NCBI GenBank assembly: GCA_051647685.1 | Contig: JBOFEG010000020.1 | Coordinates: forward strand, 1 to 63,270 | DNA from: Chlamydiales bacterium | Lineage (GTDB): Bacteria > Chlamydiota > Chlamydiia > Chlamydiales > CALTSX01 | DNA: 63,270 bases | Direction: 5' to 3' | Shown here: positions 8,609 through 60,144 of the stretch, piece after piece | Position numbering within the stretch: the stretch's first letter is position 1 | How the letters are laid out: every line of letters starts with the position of its first letter | Notes under the pieces: model-generated | The model's input: only the letters and a program-made list of their open reading frames with translations | What the model was told of the DNA's origin: nothing | The model's database searches: none | Translations under genes and position numbers: made by a program

Positions 8609-8777
8609 AGACTCTCCAAAGAATTAATTAAAAATAACAAAATTATTTTATCCGATTCAACTCGAAAATTGCAAAATAAATAGAAGCTTAACCCATTAAA
8701 TTATATAATGATTTGGGTTGAATTAATGCGCTTTCTTGCGTTACTCTTAATTAAAAATTAAAAAATTTGAGGAAAGA

Positions 8778-9494
8778 ATGATGACTCTCGTCATTAACGA
8801 ACGACTAAAAAATGCTCTATTAGAGTTTCTTCAACAGAATAAAAAATCTGATCTGTTGACTACATATCTATTTTTTTTAGAAAAATCTGAGCATATTCAT
8901 CCCTGTCTTTTTATTAAAGAAAAAACCATCTATAAAACACAGGAAGAAATTATTGAAAAACTCGAACAAGAAGGAAAGCTCTGGAGAGAGACAGAGATTA
9001 CCATCCAATTCGGGCAGCCAAGTGTAAATGAACAAACAAAACGAATTTATATTTGTCCATTTTCGGGAAAAGCCTTTGGCGATAATACACATCCGAATCC
9101 GCAAGATGCAATTTATGATTGGGTTTCGAAATGTCCAGAGAATACAGAGCGCGTATCAGGTATTCGCGTAAAGAGATTTTTTGTGTCAGAAGATCCAGAT
9201 GTTATAAAAAATTATATTCGCCAAGAACACAAACCTATAAAAAAAATAGTATATTCTTCTGCGATATCTGGGAAATTATTTAATAGTCGAAAAGCGGTTA
9301 TTGAAGATTTTAAAAAAAACGGGTTGAAGCCATTAACATTAATTGAAGTTCCTAATCAGAACAGGTTTCATATTGAAGAAAAATTCCTGCTATTTATTCA
9401 AAAATCTCTAGAGGAAACACAAATTTCTGAATTCGTCGAAGCTTTACAGCATTACGAGGAATTTGATTCTTATACAAAGCAGTGGCTGGAGTAA
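8778..9494 (+). CDS. hypothetical protein (no recognisable domain)
   Basis: Clean 238-aa ORF in an otherwise unassigned interval, with an AGGAAAG purine tract before the ATG. Contains C..C-poor motif ICPFSGKAFGDNTHPNPQDAIYDWVSKCPE. Function unknown. Confidence 0.4.
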   Translation: MMTLVINERLKNALLEFLQQNKKSDLLTTYLFFLEKSEHIHPCLFIKEKTIYKTQEEIIEKLEQEGKLWRETEITIQFGQPSVNEQTKRIYICPFSGKAFGDNTHPNPQDAIYDWVSKCPENTERVSGIRVKRFFVSEDPDVIKNYIRQEHKPIKKIVYSSAISGKLFNSRKAVIEDFKKNGLKPLTLIEVPNQNRFHIEEKFLLFIQKSLEETQISEFVEALQHYEEFDSYTKQWLE

Positions 9495-9515
9495 TATGAG
9501 ATTCTGGAGTTTTAT

Positions 9516-10121
9516 TTGATATCTTCTCAAGAAATTAAATTCCTCTATTCCTCTCTATCCCCTGATGAAATTCCTCCGATTTTATATTCAGAGGATGGAC
9601 AGCCTTTGTGTGAAATCGCATTGGTTGGTAGATCGAATGTGGGGAAATCATCTCTTATCAATCATATTCTACAACAAAAAGTTGCCTATATTTCCAATAA
9701 ACCTGGCAAAACTCAAACTATTAATTTTATCTCTGCTCCTCCGTTTTGCTTTGTCGATCTTCCTGGATATGGATTTTCGAAAGTATCAAAAACATTGAAA
9801 TGTCAATGGAACATTGTACTTAGATCTTATTTCTTGAGGAATAGTTTACGAGCTATACTTTTACTGATAGACAGTAGGCGAGATTTTACGGAAACTGACC
9901 ATACTTTTATCGACTTTGTTCGACAATTAAATTTACCGCTGATGATTATTTTTACAAAATGGGATAAGTTAACTGATTCTGAGCAAAAAAGAAAACAAAG
10001 CCAAATCAGAGATCACTATCAACAATTCGCATCCTATCCAATTATTACGTATTCTATTAAAAATGCGCAGGTTAGAAAATATCTCCTCTCATCACTCGCG
10101 CATTTTAAAAGGACTTCCTAA
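9516..10121 (+). CDS. engB: ribosome-biogenesis GTPase EngB/YsxC/YihA
   Basis: G1 GRSNVGKSSLIN, G3 DLPGYG, G4 TKWDK. TTG start at 9516. Confidence 0.8.
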   Translation: MISSQEIKFLYSSLSPDEIPPILYSEDGQPLCEIALVGRSNVGKSSLINHILQQKVAYISNKPGKTQTINFISAPPFCFVDLPGYGFSKVSKTLKCQWNIVLRSYFLRNSLRAILLLIDSRRDFTETDHTFIDFVRQLNLPLMIIFTKWDKLTDSEQKRKQSQIRDHYQQFASYPIITYSIKNAQVRKYLLSSLAHFKRTS

Positions 10122-10873
10122 TGATCCCTTTGGATGACGAAGTATTTGTTTGTTTTGATGTAGAATCAACAGGCCTCGATCATAACAAAGATCGGATTAT
10201 TGAAATTGCAGCTATTAAATTTACTCTAAAAAAGAATTTTGATCATTTCCACTATTTAATTAATCCCGAAATTCCAATCCCCCTTGAGTCACAAAAAATT
10301 CACCATATTTCTGATGAAATGGTATCAGACCAACCGACCATTTCCAAAATTCTTCCTGCTTTTTGTGAATTTTTAGGAGACTACCCTATCGTTGGACATG
10401 GGATTTCTTTTGATATCTCTATTCTGCAATCTTCAATGCAAAGGTCTAATTTTTCAATTTCATTAGATAAAAAAATTGTGATAGATACTCTCAGACTCGC
10501 TAGATTATATGGAGAGAGTCCGTCTAATTCTTTGGATGTCTTGCGGCAACATTTTAATATTCCTTTTGAAGGGTCGCATCGCGCTTTGAATGACGTAATT
10601 ATTAATATCCAGGTTTTCAAACAATTGACAAAAAAATTTAGGACTTTGCCAGAATTACTACAATGTTTGAAGAAACCCATTGCAATGAAAATGATGCCTC
10701 TTGGGAAATATAAAGGAAGATTATTTAAAGAAATCCCATTAGATTATCTTTTGTGGGCGAGAAGACAAAAATTCGACCAGGATTTGCGTTATTCTATCCA
10801 AACAGAAATTCACAGACGAAGATCTGCAGAAAATTTTTCCAAAGCCACTAATCCATTTCATGATTTGCTCTAA
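10121..10873 (+). CDS. DnaQ-like 3'-5' exonuclease with a C-terminal KYKG-motif domain
   Basis: ExoI FDVESTGL, ExoII GHGISFD, ExoIII HRALNDV. C-terminal PLGKYKGRLFKEIPLDYLLWA resembles the DUF3820-type module. The start overlaps the engB stop. Confidence 0.7.
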   Translation: MIPLDDEVFVCFDVESTGLDHNKDRIIEIAAIKFTLKKNFDHFHYLINPEIPIPLESQKIHHISDEMVSDQPTISKILPAFCEFLGDYPIVGHGISFDISILQSSMQRSNFSISLDKKIVIDTLRLARLYGESPSNSLDVLRQHFNIPFEGSHRALNDVIINIQVFKQLTKKFRTLPELLQCLKKPIAMKMMPLGKYKGRLFKEIPLDYLLWARRQKFDQDLRYSIQTEIHRRRSAENFSKATNPFHDLL

Positions 10874-25082: not shown

Positions 25083-28000
25083 ATGTTACAACCACTTATT
25101 TTTTCTTCATTTCAAGTCAGGTTTGCGGGTCCAGCTTATATGAATAGTAATACCCCTATTCATATAAATGATATTAACTATATTTTATTCGAATTATACA
25201 AACTATATCCTAACGTAAAAGATACAGATCTTTTAGAATCTTTAAGTAAATGGATATTGCTTTTTGGATGGAAACAAACAGAGTCTAATGACTTTCGTCT
25301 TTTTTTCTTTGCCCAGTCTCTTGGGCAAAATCGGGAAAATACAGATTTAATTTGCTTAGTACAAAAGCGATTTTCCGATATATCCCTATGGCCTCATGCC
25401 GCTGTACGCTCTTTTCCCTTTCTCCTTTCTCAATTTTCTCACAAAGTTTTTTTTGTTACAGAACTATCTTTAATTCCAACTAAGGTTTCTCAAGTACTTT
25501 ATATAACTACTCAGCTACATAATTTTCGAAAAGAACTTACAACTATCTCAAGCACTTCATATAACTCTAAAATACAGCCCTCTATTCCTGCTCATACAGA
25601 AATTTTATATTATCTCACACGAATCAAATCCAAATGGCCAGGATATTTTGAAAATGATTTACTAGAAGACTTCTACACTTTCATGGTGTTGACTGATAGA
25701 CATTTTCGAAGCTATAGAAATTCTATTCATTTGACAAAAGTAATTGCTAGTCATTATCGGATGCGAAAATATCTTCATCAAATCATTAACTTGACTCCCA
25801 ATCAAAATTATTTTCTCTATAGAATATTTCCAACAAAACTAAACCTGCCCCGAAAAAGTATACCTATTCTCGGACTTTGTATTTCTATGTTTTTTCCAAA
25901 TGGTTATGAGCGCTTTGAAGAAAATCACTTTCTTTTAGCATTGCAACACTATTATCCTAATATTTCTATAGTCCCTAATTCCCTGCATATTCATCTCCGC
26001 CCGCATACTCCTATCCAATCTTTTTATCTAGAGATTGAGAAAAGAGATCATACTATTTTTTTAAGAGAGGAAATCAAACATCTCAGAGAGATTATGTCTC
26101 GTGACTTCCCAAGATATATAGAAAAAGTCGTTCCTTTAATTTTTAAAAAAAGAAACGAAGAAGAAGTAATTAGAAATATTTTACTATTAAATCGAGAGAT
26201 TAAAACAAACTATGATATTCCCCAGATGATCTTATTATTAGAAGAAGTAACTGTAAACTCTCTAGTTTTCAATATGCTTCTTGTGAGAGTAATTACTAAA
26301 AAAACTCCATCGATACGCTCATACTTACAAAAAATATCTACAGAAGTGGAGTTTACTATAGACTGGAGCCGTGTTATTGGGAATTTCGGTAAAAATTACC
26401 AAAAAGAAGCTGTAGTTGTGCGGATCATTGTACGAAAAGAACCCTGTTTTTTGCGTTCTGATTTTTCTATCAACTTTTATCTTGTACGACAAAAAGTACT
26501 TTCATTAATTCATAGCGCGATTGGTAAAGTACGAGACTACAATGGAGGAATTTTAGAAAAACAAGAGGAACAACTCGCTATATTGCAAAAACAATTCACA
26601 AAAGCCACTAGACAAAACCCAGATTTATTAGAAGAATTTTTCTACTCTCTTACTCCTCTAGAGGCGCAAGTAGCTTTTAATCCATCTATTATTGCTATGT
26701 TATTTGATCTATTTTTACAAGCAATTAATGAACCTTTATCTGAAGTTGCTTTATATACACTAAAAGAACATCAATATGAAAACTTTCATTTTATTGTTAT
26801 TCGTAGTTTGGATCCTTCTTGTAATAAAATGATCCACGATAAAATAAACCTATCTCTACTTCGTCGAGATTTCTTAATACATGCTAATATAACTTATCTA
26901 TCCAGTAATCTCATTGGTTATATTTGTAAAGATCTTAAAACTAAGGCGAGGCTTCTACAAGCTAAGAATTCATGGATTAAAAATCGACACCCACAAAAAG
27001 GAATTACTATATTTTCTAAAAAGAATTTCCCCTCGTTTCTAGGAAGCCTTCGATTAGATCCAAGACTTAGTGGCTTCCATTCTTCTGATATGATTGTGCG
27101 ATTGCTATACGAGGGACTACTGCGACTTGCAGCAGGTGCAAGTTACAATTTTGGCATAGCTAAATCTCTTTGTATTTCTGTGGATCAAAAAACTTATACC
27201 TTTTCTTTGCGTAAAAGCTATTGGAATAATGGAGAACTAGTAACGGCTTATGACTTTCTATATTCTTGGGAAACAATCATTTCCCCAAAATCATCCAATC
27301 CTTTCGTGCACTTTTTTTATCCTATTAAAAATGCCAGATCTATTAAATATGAATTGCAACCTATGAGTGCACTTGGAGTCCATGCAATTGATGATATGAC
27401 TCTACAGATAGAACTAGAGCACCCATGTCCTTATTTTCTCGAACTCATCTGTCATCCCCTTTATTTTCCTATGCATTTCCGAAGCGATCAGGGTTACTCC
27501 GATTTATCTTGGTGTAAAAATAAAGAATATATCTGTAATGGCCCTTTTCAAATTAAACAAGCGATCGACGGGGAGAGATATACACTTATAAAAAATCTAT
27601 TTTATTGGGATAAAACAAATATAAAATTGGACTATATTATTTTCTCTCAAATGACTACACAACTGGCAGTGGAGCAATTTAAAAATCAGAAAATTCACTG
27701 GATAGGAACTCCATGGGCTTCTTGGGATTCTCCATTTTATGCTCTTCTTCCTAAACGGAGTGTTTTCAATAATAAAAATACACACTGCATCTACTGGTTA
27801 GTTTTTAATATAAAACAATTTCCATTTCACAATAAAAAAATCAGACAAGCATTATCCTATATTTTAAATCGGAAAAAAATTTGCTCCCAATTCCCAAAAG
27901 AATTAGTTCCAGCCTATGCACCTCTTCCAACATCAAGTCATTTACATAAACAACATATACATAAAATATCTCCCAAAGTTCTCTTTCAAGAGGCTCTACA

Positions 28001-28493
28001 AGAATTAAATTTATCATTGCAATCCTTTCCAGAAATTGTATTGACTTATTCCAATAATGAGATGTGGAAGAAAGTTGCTATCCTCATTAAATCTCAATGG
28101 GAAGATATGCTGGGAATACAATGTAAACTAGAAGCTCATCACGAAGAGCATTTTACCACGCTCTACTCAAAAAATCACCACATTGCCACTGTGAACTGGT
28201 ATTCTGCCATATCAGATCCTATGTACACTTTTTATTCCTTTTTTGCACAAGGCGAATGCGTGAATTTTTCTAACTGGCGTAATATGCGATATGAAAAACT
28301 ATTTCTACTTGCTAATCGATCTACGTTACACAGAGAAAAATACTTCGCAAAAATGGAAGAAATTTTATTAGAGGAAGTTCCAATAGCCCCCATTGCATAT
28401 AAAAAAAGTTTATTTATCAAACAAAAAAATCTAGTAACCCCTCCTCTTCTTTCTAATGGTTTTATAGATTTAAAATTTTCTCGCCTAAATTAA
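25083..28493 (+). CDS. large fusion protein: unknown N-terminal ~650 aa plus C-terminal family-5 (OppA/DppA-type) solute-binding domain; no signal peptide
   Basis: From about nt 27040: LLYEGLLRL, TYTFSLRKSYWNNGELVTAYDFLYSWE, GPFQIK, YWDK are typical SBP_bac_5 landmarks. I recognise no domain in the N-terminal part. Confidence 0.6.
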   Translation: MLQPLIFSSFQVRFAGPAYMNSNTPIHINDINYILFELYKLYPNVKDTDLLESLSKWILLFGWKQTESNDFRLFFFAQSLGQNRENTDLICLVQKRFSDISLWPHAAVRSFPFLLSQFSHKVFFVTELSLIPTKVSQVLYITTQLHNFRKELTTISSTSYNSKIQPSIPAHTEILYYLTRIKSKWPGYFENDLLEDFYTFMVLTDRHFRSYRNSIHLTKVIASHYRMRKYLHQIINLTPNQNYFLYRIFPTKLNLPRKSIPILGLCISMFFPNGYERFEENHFLLALQHYYPNISIVPNSLHIHLRPHTPIQSFYLEIEKRDHTIFLREEIKHLREIMSRDFPRYIEKVVPLIFKKRNEEEVIRNILLLNREIKTNYDIPQMILLLEEVTVNSLVFNMLLVRVITKKTPSIRSYLQKISTEVEFTIDWSRVIGNFGKNYQKEAVVVRIIVRKEPCFLRSDFSINFYLVRQKVLSLIHSAIGKVRDYNGGILEKQEEQLAILQKQFTKATRQNPDLLEEFFYSLTPLEAQVAFNPSIIAMLFDLFLQAINEPLSEVALYTLKEHQYENFHFIVIRSLDPSCNKMIHDKINLSLLRRDFLIHANITYLSSNLIGYICKDLKTKARLLQAKNSWIKNRHPQKGITIFSKKNFPSFLGSLRLDPRLSGFHSSDMIVRLLYEGLLRLAAGASYNFGIAKSLCISVDQKTYTFSLRKSYWNNGELVTAYDFLYSWETIISPKSSNPFVHFFYPIKNARSIKYELQPMSALGVHAIDDMTLQIELEHPCPYFLELICHPLYFPMHFRSDQGYSDLSWCKNKEYICNGPFQIKQAIDGERYTLIKNLFYWDKTNIKLDYIIFSQMTTQLAVEQFKNQKIHWIGTPWASWDSPFYALLPKRSVFNNKNTHCIYWLVFNIKQFPFHNKKIRQALSYILNRKKICSQFPKELVPAYAPLPTSSHLHKQHIHKISPKVLFQEALQELNLSLQSFPEIVLTYSNNEMWKKVAILIKSQWEDMLGIQCKLEAHHEEHFTTLYSKNHHIATVNWYSAISDPMYTFYSFFAQGECVNFSNWRNMRYEKLFLLANRSTLHREKYFAKMEEILLEEVPIAPIAYKKSLFIKQKNLVTPPLLSNGFIDLKFSRLN

Positions 28494-41917: not shown

Positions 41918-42691
41918 TTATTTGGAAATTACATTTTTTGATATACCATATTGTTTTTCCCATAAACGCTCTGCCAGGATTAGATCTTGAGGAGTATCTA
42001 TACCAATAGAATCTTTCATTGTTTCGTGCACTTGAATATGAAGTCCATGATATAAAAATCGCAACTGTTCTAATTGTTCGTTAATTTCAATGGGAACGGG
42101 CCCAGTTTTAGAAATTTTCTCTAATGCCTTTGGGCTAAATGCATATATTCCAATATGTTTAAAATAGAGAATAGGTAACTTTCCAGAATCATAAGGAATA
42201 GCCTGTCTAGAAAAATACATAGCCCTGCCCGTATTATCCGTCACTACCTTAGTAATATTTACATTTTTAATTTCATCTAATTTGGTAATTTTTTTCTTTA
42301 GCGTCCAAATATCCCTTTCTGTATCAATGCTGCTTAATAATTCAAGTAACATCTGTTTCTCTAAAAAAGGTTCATCTGCCTGCCAATTGACCCAAATATC
42401 AGCAGAAATTTTGCCACTTTGATAGACTTCAATAAGGCGATCTGTCCCACTATTCCAAGTAGGCGATGTATATATTATATTTTTTGTGAAACTCGATGCT
42501 AAATCATACGTCGACTGATCATCGACAGCAATGATAATTGAATCAAATAAAGAACATTGTTTTGCTGCTTTATATACCCGTTTTAACAAAGGCTCTCCAG
42601 CAAGATACTGTAGGACCTTTCCTGGAAAACGAGTGGAATGCAAACGAGCTGGTATAATACATGCGATCTTCTTTTTATGTAACATACGCAA
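41918..42691 (-). CDS. kdsB: 3-deoxy-manno-octulosonate cytidylyltransferase (CMP-Kdo synthetase)
   Basis: IIPARLHSTRFPGKVL, NSGTDRL, NWQADEP, YFSRQAIPY, LEQLRFL all parallel E. coli KdsB blocks. Confidence 0.85.
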   Translation of the reverse strand: MRMLHKKKIACIIPARLHSTRFPGKVLQYLAGEPLLKRVYKAAKQCSLFDSIIIAVDDQSTYDLASSFTKNIIYTSPTWNSGTDRLIEVYQSGKISADIWVNWQADEPFLEKQMLLELLSSIDTERDIWTLKKKITKLDEIKNVNITKVVTDNTGRAMYFSRQAIPYDSGKLPILYFKHIGIYAFSPKALEKISKTGPVPIEINEQLEQLRFLYHGLHIQVHETMKDSIGIDTPQDLILAERLWEKQYGISKNVISK

Positions 42692-43691
42692 CCTTGTCCT
42701 CTGTTGTAGTTAACCAGCCCTTATTATGAATATACCAAGCAATAGTATGTTCGAGATGTTTAGAAAAAGATTTCTTGGAATTCCAATCTATTATTCCTTC
42801 TGTTTTTTGCAAGGAATAACAATAGTCGTGACCGGGTCTATCGGGTATAAATTTAATGAGTCCTCGGTAATCAGACTCTTCATCACCTATAAGGAGACAA
42901 TAAATGCTAATAATTTTTTGAACAAGCTCGAAATTATTCCAATGATTCTCTCCAGTAAAGGCCACTCTTCTACTATGCAGCGGTATTTCGAGAAAGTTCC
43001 ATATAGCCATTATATGATCGTCAACATAAATCCAATCACGGATTTGTTTTCCTTCTCCATAAACAGGAATAGATTTTCTTTCTATGAGGCTTCGAATAAT
43101 TACTGGAATGAATTTTTCAGGGTATTGATAAGGTCCAAAATTATTACTGGAATACGAGAGCGTCACTGGCGTATTATACGTTTTATTATAAGAAAGCACG
43201 AAATGATCTGCACTTGCTTTAGAAGCAGCATACGGAGAACTTGGATTATAAGGCGCGTTTATATCTGATACTTGTTTCCGAGAACCAAAAACTTCATCAG
43301 TCGAAACGTGATGCATCCGAACTGATGGATGAGCACGAGTGAATTCGAGCAGAGATATAGTCCCGAGGATATTGGTATGAATAAATTGATACGGAGCTGC
43401 AATGCTGCGGTCTACATGAGATTCTGCTGCAAAATGAACAATAATAGTAAATGAATACTTTTGCCAAATATTCTCCAGCAGATCAGGGTCTCCAATATTG
43501 CCTTCTATAAACTGATACTTAGAGTTACGCTGCAAGTCTATCGGAATATTATTTGGATTTCCGGCATAGGTAAGTGCATCCAAATTGATAATTTTTCCAG
43601 TAAATTCTCTTCTTAGTAAAACAAATCTTATAAAGGCAGAACCAATAAATCCAGCTCCCCCCGTCACTAAAATGGTTTGATGATCTAACAT
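42675..43691 (-). CDS. rfbB: dTDP-glucose 4,6-dehydratase
   Basis: ILVTGGAGFIGSAF, HFAAESHVDRS, YAASKASADH (YxxxK). 338 aa. Confidence 0.9.
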   Translation of the reverse strand: MLDHQTILVTGGAGFIGSAFIRFVLLRREFTGKIINLDALTYAGNPNNIPIDLQRNSKYQFIEGNIGDPDLLENIWQKYSFTIIVHFAAESHVDRSIAAPYQFIHTNILGTISLLEFTRAHPSVRMHHVSTDEVFGSRKQVSDINAPYNPSSPYAASKASADHFVLSYNKTYNTPVTLSYSSNNFGPYQYPEKFIPVIIRSLIERKSIPVYGEGKQIRDWIYVDDHIMAIWNFLEIPLHSRRVAFTGENHWNNFELVQKIISIYCLLIGDEESDYRGLIKFIPDRPGHDYCYSLQKTEGIIDWNSKKSFSKHLEHTIAWYIHNKGWLTTTEDKVAYVT

Positions 43692-44524
43692 AATAACTCA
43701 GTCAGTCCTCGTTTCCAATGGCGAATCTCCAGTCCATAATTTTCAATTTTTTGCGTATTGAGTACGCTATACTTAGGACGGAAAGCTCTAACTTCATAAT
43801 CGCAGCTCGATATAGGAATAATCTTAGTACACCGCAATTTTGTTACTGATTGTAGACAATAATGAATTTCTTTTGCGAGATCAAACCATGTAGTTTCTCC
43901 TTTATTGGCAAAGTGAAAAATTCCCTCCTGTTCTAACAAAAATATAACGGCCTCTGCTAGATCTTTAACAAGTGTTGGTTTGCCTATCTGGTCAGATACA
44001 ATAGATATTTCTTCTTTTTCCATCATTAACCTGCGCATAGTGGTAAAAAAGTTAGTATTATTAGAAGAAATTACCCAAGAAGTCCGGAGTATAGTACATC
44101 CTGGTAAATAGATTTGAATTTTCTTTTCTCCCTCGTATTTCGTTTTGCCATATATATTTTGTGGTATCGGTATATCTTCTTCTGTGTAGCCATCTTTATT
44201 TTTTCCAGAAAAAATATAATCTGTCGAAATATGAAGAAAGCGCCCTTTTTCTTCTTGGATTACTCGAGCGATATTCTCGACTCCTTGTACATTAATTGAG
44301 TATGCTCGCGTAATTTCTTCTTCCGCTCTATCTACTGCAGTATATGCGGCAGCATTAATAGTATGAGTGGGGCGAAACTGTCGATACCAAGTGCGAATCG
44401 ACTTTATATTACAAATATCCACTTCCTTTCTAGAAGTAGCGTAAAATAGAATATTCCTATTTTGCAACGCATTGAAAAGCGCCTGTGCAACTATGCCAGA
44501 CTTTCCTATGACCCAAATCCGCAT
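43685..44524 (-). CDS. rfbD: dTDP-4-dehydrorhamnose reductase
   Basis: MRIWVIGKSGIVAQAL, INAAAYTAVDRAE, STDYIFSG, YGKTKYEGE are RmlD motifs. Overlaps both neighbours. Confidence 0.85.
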   Translation of the reverse strand: MRIWVIGKSGIVAQALFNALQNRNILFYATSRKEVDICNIKSIRTWYRQFRPTHTINAAAYTAVDRAEEEITRAYSINVQGVENIARVIQEEKGRFLHISTDYIFSGKNKDGYTEEDIPIPQNIYGKTKYEGEKKIQIYLPGCTILRTSWVISSNNTNFFTTMRRLMMEKEEISIVSDQIGKPTLVKDLAEAVIFLLEQEGIFHFANKGETTWFDLAKEIHYCLQSVTKLRCTKIIPISSCDYEVRAFRPKYSVLNTQKIENYGLEIRHWKRGLTELLC

Positions 44525-45048
44525 ACACTCTCACGAAAATTCGGTGCTTCTAGATCTCGCTTCGATAGGATCTTATCAGAAAGTGGCCATGTAATGGCTA
44601 TTTCTGGATCCATACTAGAAAATTGATTTTCTTTTTCTGGATTATAATATTCACTTACTTTGTATATGAGATGAGCAACCGGACTTAAGACACAAAATCC
44701 ATGTGCAAAGCCATCTGGAATAAAAAATAATTGGGGTTTATCATCACTCAAATAAATCCCCACCCATTTTCCAAATGTAGTAGAAGATGGCCTAACATCA
44801 ACTACGACATCAAAAATTGTACCCACTATCACTTGAATGAGTTTTGCTTGGCCTGGTTGCCAGTGCATCCCTCTCAAAACGTTTTTATGAGAAAAAGAAT
44901 GATTTTCTTGTACAAACTTACAAGTGATCCCCGCTTCTGGTAATTTTTCTTTCCGGAGGGTTTCATAAAAAAATCCTCGTTTATCTCGATATATTTTCGG
45001 AGTAAGTATTTTTAGTCCTGAAACTTCCAGTTCACTAATTTTTACCAT
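44506..45048 (-). CDS. rfbC: dTDP-4-dehydrorhamnose 3,5-epimerase
   Basis: RGFFYE, VLRGMHWQ, QAKLIQV, IPDGFAHGF cupin motifs of RmlC. 180 aa. Confidence 0.9.
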   Translation of the reverse strand: MVKISELEVSGLKILTPKIYRDKRGFFYETLRKEKLPEAGITCKFVQENHSFSHKNVLRGMHWQPGQAKLIQVIVGTIFDVVVDVRPSSTTFGKWVGIYLSDDKPQLFFIPDGFAHGFCVLSPVAHLIYKVSEYYNPEKENQFSSMDPEIAITWPLSDKILSKRDLEAPNFRESVCGFGS

Positions 45049-45757
45049 ATTGTTCCATTTGACTAAATGACATGTTATTAGTTGTTTTTGGATATTCTCG
45101 TCTTACATAAATAACTTCTCCCTTGCCAGAAGGAGTACGTTCAGGAAAATCACATCGTATAGCTTCTGCACTACATACATAATCAGGAAACTTCTTATGA
45201 ATTTCTTTCATAACACTTTCTGCAATCTGATGATCCTCCTCTAAAATTTCTCTATCATAATAAAAATAACCAGTGATGGGATCCATATCCCAGTAAGCTA
45301 TTACCTCTCTTATATTGAATGTAATTTCACCTAATAAAGCATGCAGAAAAGCTAGCACTACTTTAATGCGTAATTGTATTTCTAAACTCAGTTCTAAATT
45401 TGGCGTATTTGGATATTCTATATATTCTTTAGTTAATTGACCGGGATGAAATGGCTCTTTTCGAAGGTAGATAACATCACCGCATAATGGAATTGGGCTT
45501 TCATAATCCAATCTAGTATATTCTGTAACAAAGCGATAAGACATAAAGTCTACAGAAGATTCTGTTTCTGCACAGCTCATTGATTCATAATCATCATCTG
45601 TTATTTCTCTATCATAAAAAAAATATAGATAAACGAATTGTTCATCATATCTAATCTGTGCAGATCGAAGTTGTGGGAAAATTTCTTGTCCAAGCGCACG
45701 TTTTAACGAAAGGATGAGATCAGTTCTTGTTACTTTATTTTGGTGCTGCGGGTACAA
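45035..45757 (-). CDS. candidate immunity protein (internally duplicated domain), cognate to the upstream toxin-like gene
   Basis: TTG start at 45757 preceded by AAGGAG (45764-45769, 6-nt spacer). Overlaps the 3' end of the extended toxin frame by 23 nt and the rfbC start by 14 nt. Two homologous halves: YLYFFYDREITDDDYES..GDVIYLRKEP and TGYFYYDREILEEDHQI..GEVIYVRREYP. Confidence 0.5.
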   Translation of the reverse strand: MYPQHQNKVTRTDLILSLKRALGQEIFPQLRSAQIRYDEQFVYLYFFYDREITDDDYESMSCAETESSVDFMSYRFVTEYTRLDYESPIPLCGDVIYLRKEPFHPGQLTKEYIEYPNTPNLELSLEIQLRIKVVLAFLHALLGEITFNIREVIAYWDMDPITGYFYYDREILEEDHQIAESVMKEIHKKFPDYVCSAEAIRCDFPERTPSGKGEVIYVRREYPKTTNNMSFSQMEQYGKN

Positions 45758-47369
45758 TGTGTGCTCCTTTTTTACTATAATGAATTTTCGCCATGGTAGT
45801 AGGTACTCGCGTTTTTCCCTCGTTAGTAATATAAATACCTATAATTTCCTTACAGTCAATAATTTCTCTGTAACTAGCTTGACCTAATTCACCGGCTACT
45901 CAAATTCCTTTGCCCCCAAATTTATTGATTTTTTTTTGAGGATCTGGATGTATCCAGATGCTTCTATTTAATTCTACTTTATAATTCCAACTCCCTGCTA
46001 TATGCTTAGTTTGTTTATGGATTTCTACTATAAAAGCGCCTCTTTTTATCATTTCTTTACGAATGGCAAGACATTCTTTTGCCCTTGTTTTAATTACTTG
46101 CTTATTAGCTTTACTAAGCTGAATAGCTTCGTAAGTCATTATATTATTGGCTCTTTTTAAATTTTGGTAGGAACGAATTCCTTTAGTCATTGCCATTCCT
46201 GCAAAAATATCTTCGCCATATTTACCAATGATATTGCCCGATATAACTCCTCTTTCTTTTCTATCTAGTATATCCCAATTTTGTATTAGATATTGAAGTT
46301 CAGGAACTAGTTTATCTAGATACTCTTTTGGGGTATGAGTTCTTATGAATTCGATACAAGCTTGTGTTGCTTGTACCATTTCATAAGAAATATTGACTGG
46401 ATCCTGGACAAAAGCCCATAGACCTTGTCCTAGTCCATACATAGAGGAAAGCAGTGATGGAATATATTCTAAGGCTGATTCTGCTCCATCTTTTATAATT
46501 CCTTCTGATAATCCTAAAGAAAAATCAAGAAGATTAGAATTTTTAGGAATAGAAGTTGGTTGAATTTTAGAAGTAATATAATCTTGTAAAGATTCTTCAA
46601 AATTTCCAAGTTCAAAGTAAGCAGTAGCCCTTTGAAAATAAGCTTCTTTATTTTCTGGGTCTTTTTTAATCGCATTATTAAGAATATGCAATGCTTGGCT
46701 AAATTGATTTGTTTCTATATAACCCTTTGCAAGTTCTACATGAAAATAAGAGGCGTCTTGTTGTATACCTTGTAAGTATTCTTCTACTTTTTCATTATTT
46801 AGAATTTTGTTAATACATTGTATAGCTTCAATAGTATCTGATCTATCTAAAGCAATTAATCCTTTTTCAGCCCAATAATTAGGATTATTAGAATCTGTTT
46901 TTTCTTGATACAATAGATAGAATCTCTTTTGTATATCTTCCCATGCTAATTCTAAAATAGAGCTTATAACAGGTATTTCTCTAACACTTACACAATTATA
47001 ATCGGGATGATTACATCGCCAAAAAAGACTATTGAAACCTTCTCGAAAATGAATATATTGTGGATGCCAAGATAATCGATATGCGCTATCAAACGCTTCT
47101 GGCCATTCAAATCTATATAGAAATCTTTTAGGGCTAAATGGTGATAAAAGACCAGCGTGTGCTGCTTCATTAACATATTTAATCGCTTGATCAGCAAATT
47201 CTAATCTTTTCTCTCTCGTTTCTGGTATAGGATCTTTAAAAACTACAGTATTTGCTTCCGAAAAAAAAAGAATATTAAAAATAAAGAAGAATATTGCTAA
47301 GAATACGCGCTGTTTTTGGCCATATGTGTGTTCGCAAATAGACTTCATTTTCTGCCGAAGAATTTTCAT
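45735..47369 (-). pseudogene. secreted TPR protein with polymorphic-toxin-type C-terminal domain, interrupted by an in-frame TGA at 45900-45902
   Basis: The listed ORF (45900-47369) ends ...EIHKQTKHIAGSWNYKVELNRSIWIHPDPQKKINKFGGKGI*. The same frame continues for 54 codons (VAGELGQASYREIIDCKEIIGIYITNEGKTRVPTTMAKIHYSKKGAHIVPAAPK) to a TAA at 45735-45737. Signal/anchor at the N-terminus and TPR repeats mid-protein. Confidence 0.6.
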
Positions 47370-47444: not shown

Positions 47445-48158
47445 TTAGTACTTTATTCCAATCACACTTGCATTTCGCATTTGTGTTTTTGTCCTTCGAT
47501 AGGAAAAATAATTTGAACTTGAAAAAGTACAAATCTTCGATATCGCAATATTATTCTCTGGTATCCCCATTTGACTCAGTTGATAAGCACCTAATTGCCA
47601 AAAATCAAAATAGGATGGTGCTATTTGAAATTTATAAAAATATTTCGGAAAAACTTCTCGATGATGGGTATATTTTGAAGCTGTAGGACCTAAACTTGGA
47701 CTAATACAAACTAAAATATCATTTGAATTTGTAGAAAACTTATCTTGCATTGTGGTAATGACCTTTCTATATATGTTTCTAACAAGGCCTTTCCATCCAG
47801 AATGGATTATAGCAATTACTTGATTGTATTTATCATACAGCAGTGCTGCTTGACAATCAGCATGACGGACACATAGGGCAATATTTTTTTTCGCGGTAAT
47901 CAAAGCATCTGTATCTGATATGCAAAGTACACTGTTACTTTCTATATTTTTAACAATATGTACATTGTCTCCATGGATCTGATTACAATAGACTAATCCA
48001 TCGAGTTCCCATTCTTTTATAATTTTGCGTGTTATTTTCTCGATGTTACTGTCGCAAAAATCGTGAGGGCACAGAAATGCGCCTTGGATTAACTCTGGAG
48101 ATTTCATAAAGAGTGAAAATGTTTTATAGTAAAATGCACTCTTTTTTAATTCTTGCAT
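47445..48158 (-). CDS. pgeF: YfiH/PgeF (DUF152, laccase-domain) purine nucleoside phosphorylase / peptidoglycan editing factor
   Basis: NQIHGDNV, TDALIT, RHADCQAALLYD, IIHSGWKG, YFSYRR motifs. The true start may be the internal Met at 48107. Confidence 0.75.
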   Translation of the reverse strand: MQELKKSAFYYKTFSLFMKSPELIQGAFLCPHDFCDSNIEKITRKIIKEWELDGLVYCNQIHGDNVHIVKNIESNSVLCISDTDALITAKKNIALCVRHADCQAALLYDKYNQVIAIIHSGWKGLVRNIYRKVITTMQDKFSTNSNDILVCISPSLGPTASKYTHHREVFPKYFYKFQIAPSYFDFWQLGAYQLSQMGIPENNIAISKICTFSSSNYFSYRRTKTQMRNASVIGIKY

Positions 48159-49108: not shown

Positions 49109-50077
49109 TTATTTTTTAGAGGCAATCCAATCCTCCATAATTCTTAGTAAGTTTTCTCGGATAGGAATATAGTCTCTTGGATTTTCTTTAGGATCATCAA
49201 AATCAAAATGAAAATTCCCATCGATAAATTCTTGTTTGCTACAACTTCGAACTAATTCCTTTAAACCTCCAAAACGAGAATCGGATGCCGCTATAAATAA
49301 CACAGGTGTTTCAAAAGCAAGACACGGAAGCGCAGCATGTAGTCGCGTGGTAACAACACATTTTGCTTTTCGGTATTTATCTAAAATTTTTTCTGCATGT
49401 AAAAGCCGCTTTTCATAATTTGTTGCCGTAAACTCTGTTAATGGTACTCCATGAGTTAATTTCACTATTTTATATTGAGTATATCTTTCCAAAGCCTGTA
49501 AACAATCTGAGTCAATATCGACAGCATAAATGACTTGTTCTCTTTCTGGGAACGAAGAACCAAGAGTTAGAGTAAGGCATCCAGAAAAATAAGCAGGAAT
49601 GTTCTTTTCTTGTAATTTTTCCCATGTACACCTATCTCTAGCACCAACTGGAGAATGCCGTTTAAGATATTGTATTCCTTCCTCAGAGAATGCAATAGGA
49701 AGGAATTTTGTCGTAAAATGAATCGATATCAAAAATGGATCAATGTCTGGAGAAGGTGGCCATAATTTTTGCAAAGGATTTGTCTGCCACCACCAGCAAT
49801 TATCTTTAGTATGCATAAACCAACCATTAACAATAGTTGGGATCTTATTACAATTAGAGAACGAAGATATAAGTTCTCTATCTATAGGGATATTATTTTT
49901 TTTAGGGAGAAATTGTTTAGCGGCTATTGCTTGTATATCATCTCCAACATTTGTAGTAGAATAAGCAATATAACCAAATGTATTATCGTTAGTCATATTT
50001 CGATTAATCTGACTACTACTACAAAAAAGTAAATTCTCTAGATAAATAAAAACTAAAAAAAGTGATCTAAGATACAT
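49109..50077 (-). CDS. polysaccharide pyruvyl transferase-family protein with N-terminal signal/anchor
   Basis: TNVGDDIQAIAAKQFL, VGARDRCTWEKL, VTTRLHAALPCLAFETPVLFI match PS_pyruv_trans landmarks. ATG at 50077 (MYLRSLFLVFIY...) sits 2 nt after the upstream gene's stop. Confidence 0.6.
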   Translation of the reverse strand: MYLRSLFLVFIYLENLLFCSSSQINRNMTNDNTFGYIAYSTTNVGDDIQAIAAKQFLPKKNNIPIDRELISSFSNCNKIPTIVNGWFMHTKDNCWWWQTNPLQKLWPPSPDIDPFLISIHFTTKFLPIAFSEEGIQYLKRHSPVGARDRCTWEKLQEKNIPAYFSGCLTLTLGSSFPEREQVIYAVDIDSDCLQALERYTQYKIVKLTHGVPLTEFTATNYEKRLLHAEKILDKYRKAKCVVTTRLHAALPCLAFETPVLFIAASDSRFGGLKELVRSCSKQEFIDGNFHFDFDDPKENPRDYIPIRENLLRIMEDWIASKK

Positions 50078-50079
50078 GT

Positions 50080-50913
50080 CTATTCGTTTTCTTTGAAACC
50101 ACATTTATGATTATCCGATATAGCTCCAATAAGATTTGATACGATATTTCTTCTTGATGAATATTGACGAATGCCTGGAATATAATGCGTTTCAGCATCA
50201 ATAAAAGTCCATATAGGGCGAGATGTATAATGTTCTAATATTTTTTTTATTCCTTTCTTTGAAAGAATCATAGAATGCGTTCCATACCTGCTTCTAATTT
50301 GCATAATATCTTTATGACAATAATTTCGAGTAAGGTAGTATTCTAATGGATGTAATTTTTGTCCGGGACGTGGATCTAAGGCTAGACAACGTAGGTAACC
50401 ACCTCGTTTTCTATAATCTATATCTGTATAAAATATGTCCCATTCTGGATCTATTATAAAGAGAGTGGATAAAAGATTTATTAATTCTTTAGGATCCTCC
50501 AAAAACTCCACATCATCTTCCATAACCCAGATAATAGAAAATTCCCTATCAGATGCATCTTTTATTATAGAAATATGAGTTAATAAGCATCCTAAAGCTC
50601 CAGGCGTTATTCTTATGGAATAAGGAGATGCAAGTTCTTGCTGTGCATTCTTAGGAAGTTTCCAACCATTAACAGCAGAGACTCTATTTATACCTAAATT
50701 GTATCGTTCACAAGCAGTTTTTGTATTTTGCCATTTCTCTGTTCGAAAATCTAAATTAAGCACATAAATACAGTCGATTAAATCCAGGCCTGTATTGAGC
50801 TCTGTTACTTCAATAGAAGTTAAATATCTCCAAATGGGGTTCGCTTCATTTGATGCAGAAAAAATAGCGCCAAAGATAGAAAAATAATGAAAAATAAAAA
50901 AATATTTAATCAT
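50080..50913 (-). CDS. family-25 glycosyltransferase (Lic2B/LgtB-, collagen galactosyltransferase-like) with N-terminal signal/anchor
   Basis: IYVLNLDFRTEKW...RVSAVNG, GALGCLLTHISI, IWVMEDDVEF (DxD-like) follow the GT25 pattern. N-terminus MIKYFFIFHYFSIFGAIFSA is hydrophobic. Confidence 0.65.
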   Translation of the reverse strand: MIKYFFIFHYFSIFGAIFSASNEANPIWRYLTSIEVTELNTGLDLIDCIYVLNLDFRTEKWQNTKTACERYNLGINRVSAVNGWKLPKNAQQELASPYSIRITPGALGCLLTHISIIKDASDREFSIIWVMEDDVEFLEDPKELINLLSTLFIIDPEWDIFYTDIDYRKRGGYLRCLALDPRPGQKLHPLEYYLTRNYCHKDIMQIRSRYGTHSMILSKKGIKKILEHYTSRPIWTFIDAETHYIPGIRQYSSRRNIVSNLIGAISDNHKCGFKENE

Positions 50914-56811: not shown

Positions 56812-59800
56812 ATGAATATGAAAAAACAGAATGTTACAAAGAAAGCTAATTACATGTTGTATTTTTTTTTGGTCATTATCGTACTGATCGCTATACGAAT
56901 TGGTTACTTACAATGGAAACAATATAATTATTATTTTAATCTTTCTCAAAAACCTCAAAAAAAATCTATTTTAGAACCTGCTCTTCGGGGAATCATTTAT
57001 GATCGATTTTCTATCCCAGTTGCTTTAAATCAACTACAATACAATTTATTTATTTATTACGAACCTATTGCAAAACAAATTCCCCGAATTGCCTGGGAAG
57101 AAGGCTTACAGGGACGTACGAAAATTTTCCCTAGACGAGATTATATTGAATATTTATCCAATGTACTTACAAAAATTACTCATTGTGATCAAGTTAGAAT
57201 AAAAGATTTAATATATAGTAAGGCCAGTATTTTCCCTAATACCCCTATTCTAATACAAGAAAATTTAGATGAGGCTACCTACTATCGCCTTAAGCTCTTG
57301 GAAAAGGATTTTCCAGGTATTCATACTAAAATCCAAGCAAAACGCTTCTATCCATATCATACTATAGGTAGCAATCTACTCGGATACATGGGAAGAATTA
57401 ATGGAAAAGAATATAATCTATTATCTCACGAGCGCCTAGTTTTACAAAATTTTTTATGTGATAGATCCCAACAACTTCCTACCCCTTTGCCAGTCGGAAC
57501 AGAAAGTGTTAGCGATGTACATAGTAGATTGCGAACATTAGAGCGACAGTCCTATTCTATTAATGATTGCGTAGGTAAATCTGGGATAGAAAAACAATTC
57601 GACCAATCTCTAAGAGGAATTTTTGGAAAGCAAGCTTATGAAATCGATGTGAAAGGGAATGTCTTGCGAATCGCTCCAAATTCTTATCCCCCAGTTCCAG
57701 GAAAACACATTAAACTTGCTATTTCTATTGAATTACAAGAGTATGCCGAGAAGCTTCTTGCTATGCACGAGGGTATTCGGGATCAATCCTTTTCCAGTAA
57801 TAAACAACCACCTCCTTGGATAAAAGGAGGTGCAATTGTTGCGATGATTCCGAATAGTGGGGAAGTTGTTGCTATGGCTTCTTATCCTCGATACAACCCA
57901 AATGATTTTATCAATAGAACTCGAAAAATACCAGAGTGGCTTGAAAATGATACTATGATTGAGGACATTTGGAATGGCAACAGATCACTACAAAAAGAAA
58001 TTTATGACCTAAACAAAAATCGATATTCTTACATCTATCAACCGTGTACTTGGTCCTATTTTACGCAATCTATTCTATCTCCAAATAGTCAAATATATAA
58101 AATAGTTAAAAACCTTTCCGATCTAAATGTCGTCCATCAAATTCTTTCTGCATTTTCTCAATTACTTATACTTTCTGGACAAAGCCCCATGGATTTATTG
58201 AATAGTATGTATAAGGAGAATAGTACTTTTTATGTAGATGATACAAATATATATGCCCTAGCCCTTCCAATAATGGTAAAGAAACTACGAGAAACGCTTG
58301 ATCGCTATTTATCCAAAATTCCAAACAATTTAGATAGATTACTCTTCCTAGATATATGTCAATTATGTATCGACCACAACCTATTTTCTCGAGACTTGCT
58401 TGAATTTGTCGGGAATGACTCTTTATCACAATATCGAAAATTAACACAATCTCTTGCAATACTCAGCAAAGAAATACAACGAGATATAAGGCCCTTATTC
58501 TATAAATATGATTTTGCTACATGGCGAGAAAATTCTCTCTCTGATTTTTTAAAAGAAAAACGAGCTTGGGAAAAAGAACACAGGCGATATGCAAAACCCT
58601 ATTTAGATTATCTAACCATAGAAGAACAAAAACTCTTTAAGAATTTTTGGGAAGAGAATCGAACAATTTTTATATCAGCGATTTTTTTTGATCAGAAAGA
58701 CAGCAGTATTCCTAATAACTTGCAAGTATATATTGATTTCCTATCTGAACGATATACGTCTACACGTGATTGTTCTCCTGAATCTGTCCAAGCTTATAGT
58801 TATCTACAAGCCCGACTGAATCAAATTCCTCAAGAAATTGCAATAAAATACTTAAAAACCATGCGTTCTTATAGTGAATTAAACCGTCCACTATTTGGTA
58901 GATATCCGACACTACCTTCATTAGATGGAATTCAATATGAACGACACTTAGCTAAAGCTTTTTATCCTATTGGTGGTTATGGATTCACACGCTCTTTGGC
59001 ATATCAACAAGGATCACCTCTCGGTTCTTTATTTAAAATCGTCACCGGATACGCAAGTCTTTATAATCGATGGACGAATTACCACGTGGAAAATCCAGAT
59101 TTCGAACTGAATCCACTGACACTAATCGACAACCTACAACCAAATATACGGGGGAAAAATGGAATTTTACTCGGCTCATTCTGTTCTGGAGAGCCTATTT
59201 ATCAAATTCATAAAGGTGGAAGAATTCCTCGTAGTAGCCATAAAAATATTGGGAAAGTAGATTTTATTAAAGCTATGGAACAATCGAGCAATATTTATTT
59301 TTCGTTGCTCGCAAGCAATACTCTTGAAGTACCCGACGATTTAATTACCGCCGCAAAAAAATTTGGATTTGGTAGAAAAACAGGATTACTTCTTCCAGGA
59401 GAGGCATCGGGATATCTACCGAGAGATATCCGAGAAAATATTACCTCATTATACTCTCTTGCTATTGGCCAACACTCACTACTTGTCACTCCTCTTCAAG
59501 CAGCCCATATGTTAAACATTGTAGCTAACTGTGGGAAGGCACCCTTCCCACAAATCATACAATCACTACACGGAGAACAAGTGCAGAACTCTACCGAAAT
59601 TTTATCTAAAAAATTGTACTTTCCACTACAATCTGAATTACACCGAATAGGAGTCTCATTTCCTATATTTAGTGGTTTAAGCGAAAAGAAAAAATACTCA
59701 TCTATTGATTTCCATTCAACTGAGATGCAAAATAGAGCTCCTTTCCCAACAAAAATCCATGATTATTTAATGCATAGCTTACAACAAGTAATGATCGGTG

Positions 59801-60144
59801 AAAGAGGATCTGCTAGAGGTTCTGTAATTACCTCTCTGCAAAAACAGATTTTTAATAAACAAATTTATAATAATTTAATCCGACAAGTAGTTGGAAAAAC
59901 CGGGACTGCAGAAATAGTGTACAGACCTACTCTAGATAGAGAGGGATCCGGCATAATATGCAACCACATTTGGTTCGGTGGTATTTCTTTTCCAGATGAA
60001 GAATCTTGCATACATTATGTACATCCCGAACTGATTGTGGTTGTATTTCTGCGTTATGGCGATTACGGAAAGGAAGCCGCTCCTATTGCAGTACAAATGA
60101 TTGACAAATGGAGAGATCTACAAAAACAACATATAAATCATTAG
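56812..60144 (+). CDS. pbp2: penicillin-binding protein 2 (class B transpeptidase), enlarged chlamydial type
   Basis: N-terminal TM. SxxK = SLFK (Ser codon 59026-59028, residue 739), SxN = SSN, KTG = KTGTAE. 1110 aa versus about 630 aa for typical PBP2. Confidence 0.85.
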   Translation: MNMKKQNVTKKANYMLYFFLVIIVLIAIRIGYLQWKQYNYYFNLSQKPQKKSILEPALRGIIYDRFSIPVALNQLQYNLFIYYEPIAKQIPRIAWEEGLQGRTKIFPRRDYIEYLSNVLTKITHCDQVRIKDLIYSKASIFPNTPILIQENLDEATYYRLKLLEKDFPGIHTKIQAKRFYPYHTIGSNLLGYMGRINGKEYNLLSHERLVLQNFLCDRSQQLPTPLPVGTESVSDVHSRLRTLERQSYSINDCVGKSGIEKQFDQSLRGIFGKQAYEIDVKGNVLRIAPNSYPPVPGKHIKLAISIELQEYAEKLLAMHEGIRDQSFSSNKQPPPWIKGGAIVAMIPNSGEVVAMASYPRYNPNDFINRTRKIPEWLENDTMIEDIWNGNRSLQKEIYDLNKNRYSYIYQPCTWSYFTQSILSPNSQIYKIVKNLSDLNVVHQILSAFSQLLILSGQSPMDLLNSMYKENSTFYVDDTNIYALALPIMVKKLRETLDRYLSKIPNNLDRLLFLDICQLCIDHNLFSRDLLEFVGNDSLSQYRKLTQSLAILSKEIQRDIRPLFYKYDFATWRENSLSDFLKEKRAWEKEHRRYAKPYLDYLTIEEQKLFKNFWEENRTIFISAIFFDQKDSSIPNNLQVYIDFLSERYTSTRDCSPESVQAYSYLQARLNQIPQEIAIKYLKTMRSYSELNRPLFGRYPTLPSLDGIQYERHLAKAFYPIGGYGFTRSLAYQQGSPLGSLFKIVTGYASLYNRWTNYHVENPDFELNPLTLIDNLQPNIRGKNGILLGSFCSGEPIYQIHKGGRIPRSSHKNIGKVDFIKAMEQSSNIYFSLLASNTLEVPDDLITAAKKFGFGRKTGLLLPGEASGYLPRDIRENITSLYSLAIGQHSLLVTPLQAAHMLNIVANCGKAPFPQIIQSLHGEQVQNSTEILSKKLYFPLQSELHRIGVSFPIFSGLSEKKKYSSIDFHSTEMQNRAPFPTKIHDYLMHSLQQVMIGERGSARGSVITSLQKQIFNKQIYNNLIRQVVGKTGTAEIVYRPTLDREGSGIICNHIWFGGISFPDEESCIHYVHPELIVVVFLRYGDYGKEAAPIAVQMIDKWRDLQKQHINH

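Follow-up and report, generated by a model that had tools for sequence, protein, structure and literature searches.

The Interrupted Toxin Gene

In the genome of a Chlamydiales bacterium (CALTSX01; assembly GCA_051647685.1), contig JBOFEG010000020.1 appears to carry a polymorphic-toxin-type pair of toxin and immunity genes; an in-frame TGA interrupts the first, and the second, directly downstream, is intact. The stretch of 63,270 nt analyzed here is referred to as the window, and all coordinates are window positions. The truncated toxin open reading frame (ORF; 45900-47369, minus strand) encodes 489 amino acids, comprising a predicted signal peptide, tetratricopeptide repeats (TPR), a central domain that is helical, and, at the C-terminal end, ~40 residues from the start of an Ntox50 domain. 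Codon 490 is the premature TGA (45900-45902, minus strand), which is CGA (Arg) in 4/4 orthologs and differs from it by a coding-strand C>T at 45902. The 3′ end of the ORF reads ...FGGKGI-TGA (45902-45900), and 54 sense codons (VAGELGQ...HIVPAAPK) follow in the same frame up to a TAA at 45737-45735. The untranslated remnant of the toxin gene (45735-45899, minus strand) comprises these 54 codons and the original TAA, and corresponds to six β-strands and to His530 and His537 of the toxin domain. A first-pass annotation, made from the sequence alone, had described the 489-residue ORF, the TGA, the 54 sense codons, and the TAA; its coordinates and translation were reproduced exactly. It had also held that the 142-nt gap between annotated ORFs (45758-45899) is not intergenic, which proved correct, as the gap is the severed 3′ end of the toxin gene and the Ntox50 match runs through it. 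A 54-codon open stretch is only mildly improbable in DNA of 35% GC (chance of ~0.02, our own estimate from base composition), and homology is therefore the decisive test.

The Toxin Domain and the Effect of Truncation

The stop-interrupted toxin domain (45750-46025, minus strand; conceptual residues 449-540) was identified through Pfam, sequence matches in the PDB, and a structural model of an ortholog. The conceptual readthrough protein matches Ntox50 (PF15542) with 71.0 bits (E 1.5e-19) over residues 449-540 and profile positions 2-92 of 92, whereas the 489-residue ORF by itself falls short of the gathering cut-off of 22.2 bits, scoring only 15.5 bits over profile positions 2-40. The first-pass annotation had named Ntox50 as the C-terminal module and had suggested a Pfam search across the TGA; this search confirms that the module is Ntox50 and that it spans the stop, since the full profile is matched only upon readthrough. 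Three histidines lie in near-invariant motifs among 72 aligned family members: K455-H456, H530 of the IHY motif, and H537-I-V-P540 of the conceptual translation. The active sites of two characterized relatives are known. In MafB2, His335, His402, and His409 are required for toxicity and the domain shows ribonuclease (RNase) activity (PMC9970974); in YxiD, which cleaves tRNA, His447, His521, and His528 (the last in an HxVP motif) form the active site and are needed for toxicity (PMC12700104). By alignment spacing, both sets of functional histidines correspond to His456, His530, and His537 of the window protein. Only His456 of the K-H motif (46002-46004, minus strand) is encoded upstream of the stop; His530 (45780-45782, minus strand) and His537 of the HxVP motif (45759-45761, minus strand) lie after it.

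In the PDB, the closest sequence matches of the toxin domain are the C-terminal domain (CTD) of YxiD (9v8i_B, E 5.5e-6) and MafB2 (8hhj_B, E 1.6e-4). An AlphaFold (AF2) model was made on the intact ortholog P0001, which is 74% identical to the window protein, and not on the window protein itself; its predicted local distance difference test score (pLDDT) is 86 and its predicted template modeling score (pTM) is 0.83. The top PDB match of the model, in its C-terminal domain, is again 9v8i_B (template modeling score 0.78, root-mean-square deviation 1.9 Å, 103 columns, 36% identity), and the fold matches ranking after it are TPR proteins that cover the middle of the protein. The residue equivalent to the stop falls at the first β-strand of the model, and the six strands are all encoded beyond it. 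The 489-residue product retains just two helices of the toxin domain and lacks the β-sheet, His530, and His537. With the β-sheet core gone and only one catalytic histidine of three remaining, the structure and the published mutagenesis predict that this product would be unable to act as an RNase.

The predicted Sec signal peptide or signal anchor (47253-47369, minus strand; residues 1-39) has the h-region VFLAIFFFIFNILFF and a putative cleavage site at SEA|NT. The sole hydrophobic segment of the toxin protein is this N-terminal one (residues ~22-37, directly before the putative site), and the N-terminal segment is modeled as a helix in the ortholog; these features fit a Sec signal peptide or signal anchor. 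TPR repeats, already noted in the first-pass annotation, are found at residues ~199-264 (46578-46775, minus strand) by Pfam matches to TPR_2, TPR_16, TPR_17, and related families and by TPR fold matches in the PDB. They are followed by a conserved, all-helical central domain (46080-46559, minus strand; residues 271-430), which is the signature of the chlamydial chassis described below; it has no Pfam match and is helical in the AF2 model of the ortholog. Pfam gave only TPR families and Ntox50 for the toxin protein, with no match to DUF1020 (PF06255) or LXG.

The Immunity Gene

The gene directly downstream (45035-45757, minus strand) is intact and encodes a protein of 240 amino acids with two tandem MafI2-like domains. 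It begins with TTG, is preceded by AAGGAG at 45764-45769, and overlaps the old 3′ end of the toxin gene by 23 nt and the start of rmlC by 14 nt; the TTG falls within the HIVP codons of the toxin. The window protein has no match in the Pfam copy used, which did not include PF26541, and its orthologs (74-96% identical) bear precomputed PF26541 (MafI2) matches. The two halves of the protein are 32% identical (E 6e-12), which identifies a tandem duplication, and a single-domain profile built from 22 sequences of the window and related loci matches MafI2 in 8hhj_A (E 1.6e-4, 88/97 positions). The AF2 model of the immunity protein, based on a four-sequence alignment, is a poor prediction with a pLDDT of 44. 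A direct search with the immunity protein, whose sensitivity is limited by a word index, returned 3 close homologs, and more distant ones were found by tblastn in related loci; a MafI2-like homolog lies directly downstream of the toxin gene in ~30 related loci. The pairing of Ntox50 with MafI2 is already known. The view of the first-pass annotation that a downstream immunity gene persists thus holds, on the evidence of the intact ORF, of PF26541 in the orthologs, and of the 8hhj_A profile match.

Orthologs and the History of the Stop Codon

Four orthologous loci were recovered, with the gene order Rce1-like, pgeF, toxin, immunity, rmlC, rmlD, rmlB, kdsB, and suf. The toxin is intact in L001 (533 amino acids, 74% protein identity to the window) and in L066 (568 amino acids); L065 (94% DNA identity) is on a partial contig, and its toxin gene is intact over the region covered. 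The closest strain, L064, is 98.7-99.4% identical to the window in DNA sequence. The immunity gene is intact in the window and in L064, L065, L001, and L066. Codon 490, for which the first-pass annotation had proposed a comparison with related genomes, is CGA in L001, L064, L065, and L066. Furthermore, in the family alignment of 72 rows, headed by the window sequence with Arg written in for the stop, the stop column holds Lys in 43 and Arg in 19 of the 71 homologs (62/71 Lys or Arg) and never Trp, Cys, or Gly. As CGA is present in all four orthologs and the family column is Lys/Arg, the lesion is, on this alignment, one C>T transition that changed CGA to TGA in the window strain only. This agrees with one of the two explanations offered previously, namely that a single nonsense mutation has disarmed the toxin.

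The sister strain has lost the gene in a different manner. L064 retains CGA, but its codon 174 has changed from TTA to TAA (46849) and a deletion of 266 bp (46169-46434) shifts the frame; its toxin gene is called as three fragments beside an intact immunity gene. The 162 bases after the window stop are identical in L065 and differ by one base in L064; the identity to L065 indicates that the mutation is very young. Between the window and L001, ω is 0.24 for both the toxin and the immunity gene, 0.32 within the 54 post-stop codons, and 0.13-0.19 for the neighbors, a pattern from which the toxin appears to have been under purifying selection over this long divergence. The ω of 0.32 in the post-stop codons implies that the remnant was coding for nearly all of its history, until very recently. 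The first-pass annotation had regarded a lack of conservation in these codons as evidence against its proposal; they are conserved, both by this value against L001 and by the 162 bases shared with L065. Between the window and L064, nonsynonymous and synonymous changes stand at 17:1 in the toxin gene versus 10:13 in six flanking genes (Fisher p = 7e-4), and the immunity gene has 9 nonsynonymous and 2 synonymous changes (p = 0.064). These counts indicate that constraint on the toxin has probably been relaxed or altered in the window/L064 clade. Together, the two independent inactivations and the excess of amino-acid change point to a dispensable gene, apparently no longer needed by the clade.

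A further observation concerns the toxin tip. The post-stop segment (45738-45899) is ~80% identical to the homolog P0002 and ~61% to P0001 (our own count on the alignment), whereas the whole toxin protein is nearer P0001 (74%) than P0002 (61-68%). Such mosaicism may be a trace of earlier recombination in the tip.

Interpretation and Alternative Explanations

We consider it probable, at roughly 85%, that the locus is a toxin-immunity pair of the polymorphic-toxin type whose toxin gene is a very recent nonsense pseudogene and whose immunity gene has been retained. The event is ordinary gene decay in a large, little-described chlamydial toxin family. The ancestral gene would have encoded a Sec-exported protein of ~544 amino acids with a signal peptide, TPR, the conserved helical domain, and, at the C-terminus, an RNase of the MafB2/YxiD type (Ntox50) that cleaves tRNA or other RNA. 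The next gene, with its own ribosome-binding site and overlapping the last codons of the toxin gene, would supply an immunity protein of two MafI2-like domains; if it works as MafI2 does, it may block the substrate groove of the RNase in the producer. A C-to-T transition would then have turned Arg codon 490 from CGA into TGA, so that translation would end before the first β-strand of the toxin domain. An intact toxin, once exported by Sec, may leave the cell through type II secretion, as the location of a paralogous pair beside gspD/E/F in L067 could suggest, and would act as an RNase on the target cell, while the immunity protein would shield the producer and its kin. We infer Sec export, RNase activity, immunity by binding, and competition among chlamydiae rather than attack on the host. 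A bacterial, inter-chlamydial target is favored over the host by the cognate immunity genes, the swappable tips, and the orphan cassettes.

The main residual doubt is a sequencing, assembly, or consensus artifact, in which case the true codon would be CGA and the toxin intact. Such an error is unlikely, although CGA occurs in every ortholog, the flanking 160 bases are identical to those of relatives, and the window consists of one draft contig. The mutation is a substitution outside any homopolymer, and CGA>TGA is a common natural route to nonsense codons in AT-rich genomes. Moreover, the two independent disabling lesions of L064 in the same gene demonstrate that its loss is tolerated in the lineage. 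Functional recoding, by which low-level UGA readthrough, selenocysteine, or an alternative code would yield small, safe doses of full-length toxin, is highly improbable. In its favor, the frame is open over exactly the rest of the domain, up to the ancestral TAA, and UGA is somewhat leaky in bacteria in general, but any one-step nonsense mutation would leave such a frame. Only one strain has the TGA and four orthologs have CGA; the aligned residue is Lys or Arg, never Trp, Cys, or Gly. TGA ends 13/55 long ORFs of the window, and long conserved genes, polA among them, have no internal TGA. An alternative code in which TGA specifies Trp or Gly was rejected on the same count and on the unfragmented long genes. 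RNA folding downstream of the TGA is no better than in shuffled sequence (z = 0.23) and shows no structure like a selenocysteine insertion sequence (SECIS); the Rfam elements of the window are three ordinary tRNAs only, with no tRNA-Sec or suppressor tRNA among them. Selenocysteine insertion or a structured readthrough signal was rejected for want of a stable fold, a tRNA-Sec, and an Rfam element. The other explanation in the first-pass annotation, dosing of a dangerous product by TGA readthrough, is thus not supported, in view of the private TGA, the Lys/Arg column, the normal use of TGA as a stop, and the lack of a recoding structure.

The least improbable of the alternatives, to which we give a small chance, is that truncation has been tolerated or even favored because the N-terminal 489 residues have a role independent of the toxin, the immunity gene being kept against the toxins of relatives. 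The stop lies precisely at the boundary between the chassis and the toxin core, the immunity gene is intact in every strain, and the sample of L064 contains a probably intact paralogous pair. By contrast, L064 has destroyed the chassis itself through the stop at codon 174 and the deletion of the helical domain, so that the N-terminal part is dispensable there too, and strong purifying selection is hard to square with the chassis-wide ratio of 17:1. Other points weigh against recent decay of a pair retaining its immunity gene. Instead of relaxed constraint, the nonsynonymous excess, which the immunity gene shows too, could stem from the diversifying selection typical of toxin-immunity pairs. 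The post-stop region has no decay of its own, which is expected if the stop is very recent and offers no independent proof of non-function. The 489-residue product, with its signal peptide, TPR, and helical domain, may still be made and serve some non-toxic role. Recent nonsense inactivation with retention of the immunity gene nevertheless remains our preferred explanation, and the fitting annotation of the locus would be that of a pseudogene with an orphan immunity gene behind it, with the 142-nt "gap" as the 3′ end of the toxin gene. It offers a clean natural case in which a toxin was lost in one step and its immunity gene stayed, with an independent repeat in a sister strain.

Gene Neighborhood

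The pair is embedded in a string of genes on the minus strand. Upstream lies pgeF (47445-48158), encoding a peptidoglycan editing factor of the Cu-oxidase_4 family, whose position is kept in the orthologous loci; downstream are the overlapping genes rmlC (44506-45048), rmlD (43685-44524), rmlB (42675-43691), and kdsB (41918-42691). The description of this setting as a core lipopolysaccharide operon was partly right: the tight overlapping string pgeF/toxin/immunity/rmlC/rmlD/rmlB/kdsB stands and is kept in relatives, and its rml and kdsB genes are those for dTDP-rhamnose synthesis and CMP-Kdo synthetase. Scans for promoters and terminators near the locus were uninformative, with fewer promoter-like sites than in shuffled sequence. 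PolA matches place the window in Chlamydiota, with 59% for a Simkaniaceae metagenome-assembled genome (MAG) and 76-86% for other relatives.

At 49109-50913 (minus strand), the window has two intact accessory genes, flanked by the Rce1-like gene and mcsA, that L001 lacks; they encode a polysaccharide pyruvyl-transferase-like protein of 331 amino acids and a protein of 277 amino acids. In L064, they are frameshifted by a 10-bp deletion (50888-50897) and 1-bp deletions at 50248 and 50061, which makes them a second site in the clade where genes have decayed unequally. Elsewhere in the window, the loci at 25083-28493 and 56812-60144 (both plus strand) encode two large proteins. One is an OppA-like substrate-binding protein of 1136 amino acids, in which the family match covers only residues 658-1110 and the N-terminal extension of ~650 residues has no NCBIfam match; the other is a PBP2-like protein of 1110 amino acids with family matches at residues 14-387 and 820-908, a split that implies a probable large insertion.

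A Family of Chlamydial Polymorphic Toxins

The first-pass annotation had called a toxin of this kind unusual in Chlamydiota, which does not hold. A search with the toxin returned 115 homologs, most with TPR and Ntox50 and nearly all from Chlamydiota MAGs; over 100 TPR-Ntox50 homologs from such MAGs are full-length, and chlamydiae are already among the Ntox50 lineages of Zhang et al. (2012; PMC3482391). In GTDB representative genomes, 62 loci contain a relative of the toxin, often in several copies per genome, with a best toxin match of 44%. The helical domain (residues 271-430) is the most conserved part of the family and, used alone, matches 508 representative clusters at a threshold of E<=1e-3 and 362 at E<=1e-10. 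Among 213 members with complete tails, the C-terminal ~117 residues are Ntox50 in 144, two unnamed types in 32 and 22, Ntox35-like in 3, and rarer types in ~10, the last including DUF6883 (84 bits) and a weak colicin-DNase-like match. The two abundant unnamed types have the signatures HVMQxKHAWDK...AWVITK and GIPxxF...YIRLMPG...EAHIP. The family built on this chassis of signal peptide, TPR, and helical domain thus bears at least ten different C-terminal modules, and no MafI2 homologs were found at loci with tips other than Ntox50. Judged from its sequences, the architecture is that of a polymorphic toxin system on a chlamydia-specific chassis.

Orphan tip and immunity cassettes occur in relatives only, with none in the window. 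At L005 (6812-7591), an ORF downstream of the toxin gene encodes, in one frame, a MafI2 domain, Ntox50 profile positions 50-92 (43 bits), and a second MafI2 domain. Similar MafI2/half-Ntox50/MafI2 ORFs lie 3′ of toxin genes in L004, L008, L014, L017, and L024, the Ntox50 fragment being degenerate in L024 and L017. The orphan Ntox50 half in these relatives is the same segment as the post-TGA remnant of the window. This arrangement suggests that cassettes may be exchanged that contain only the β-sheet half of the toxin and its immunity domain.

An intact paralogous pair is present at L067 (3115-5621), with a TPR-Ntox50 toxin of 573 amino acids and a MafI2 protein of 258 amino acids, adjoining genes for GspF, GspE, and a secretin (6495-10836). 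L064 comes from the same sample (ERR13998652) and matches it in GC content, and this pair may be a second copy in the L064 genome; the genome of the window may likewise have one outside the window. Type II secretion genes as a general neighbor of the family were rejected, as they occur at L067 and at none of the other ~60 loci.

We found no description in the literature searched of the chlamydial chassis of TPR and a ~160-residue helical domain, of its pairing with MafI2-type proteins, or of half-domain orphan cassettes. Tentatively, and with the odds leaning somewhat against it, the gene could be seen as a copy in decay within a large polymorphic toxin system that spans the Chlamydiota and is essentially undescribed, with a Sec-exported TPR and helical chassis, at least ten interchangeable tips, cognate immunity genes, and orphan cassettes that swap only the β-sheet half of Ntox50 and its immunity domain. 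With hundreds of chlamydial proteins on one export chassis, and with swappable nuclease tips and their immunity genes, the family bears on whether obligate intracellular bacteria compete directly inside their hosts. If the toxins do target chlamydiae that share a host cell, they would represent colicin-like warfare by obligate intracellular bacteria inside eukaryotic cells, and strains like that of the window would be turning into immune non-producers ("cheaters").

Comparison With Known Systems

The nearest characterized toxin-immunity pair is MafB2-CT/MafI2 of Neisseria meningitidis B16B6 (PDB 8hhj; PMC9970974, PMC4287609), which shares with the window the Ntox50 toxin family, with the three functional histidines aligned, and the MafI2 immunity family. 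Both systems have a signal peptide and an immunity gene directly downstream, and relatives of both have alternative or orphan C-terminal cassettes. Unlike MafB2, the window system has neither DUF1020 nor a mafA neighbor (its neighbors are pgeF and rmlC), and its chassis consists of TPR and an unnamed helical domain; furthermore, its immunity protein is a tandem two-domain form and its toxin is truncated by the stop. The best match to the window toxin domain in both sequence and fold is YxiD-CTD, an Ntox50 tRNase paired with YxxD in Bacillus subtilis 6633 (PDB 9v8i; PMC12700104). However, YxiD is an LXG toxin of type VII secretion in a Gram-positive bacterium, and its immunity protein YxxD is Sm-like and not MafI2-like, whereas the window toxin has a Sec-type N-terminus and no LXG match.

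The general plan follows the polymorphic toxins of Zhang et al. (2012; PMC3482391) in its constant N-terminal region, swappable C-terminal modules, adjacent immunity gene, and orphan cassettes. Their survey includes "T2SS"-type toxins with a signal peptide only and toxin-immunity pairs in the amoeba endosymbionts Simkania and Odyssella, and gives no immunity family for Ntox50. Finally, loci of contact-dependent inhibition (CDI), Rhs, and Maf systems are likewise found with a decayed toxin and a retained "orphan" immunity gene, through point mutation or deletion and independently in related strains. Unlike those cases, the event in the window has been caught at the stage of a single mutation, at a locus within a conserved string of housekeeping genes rather than in a genomic island.

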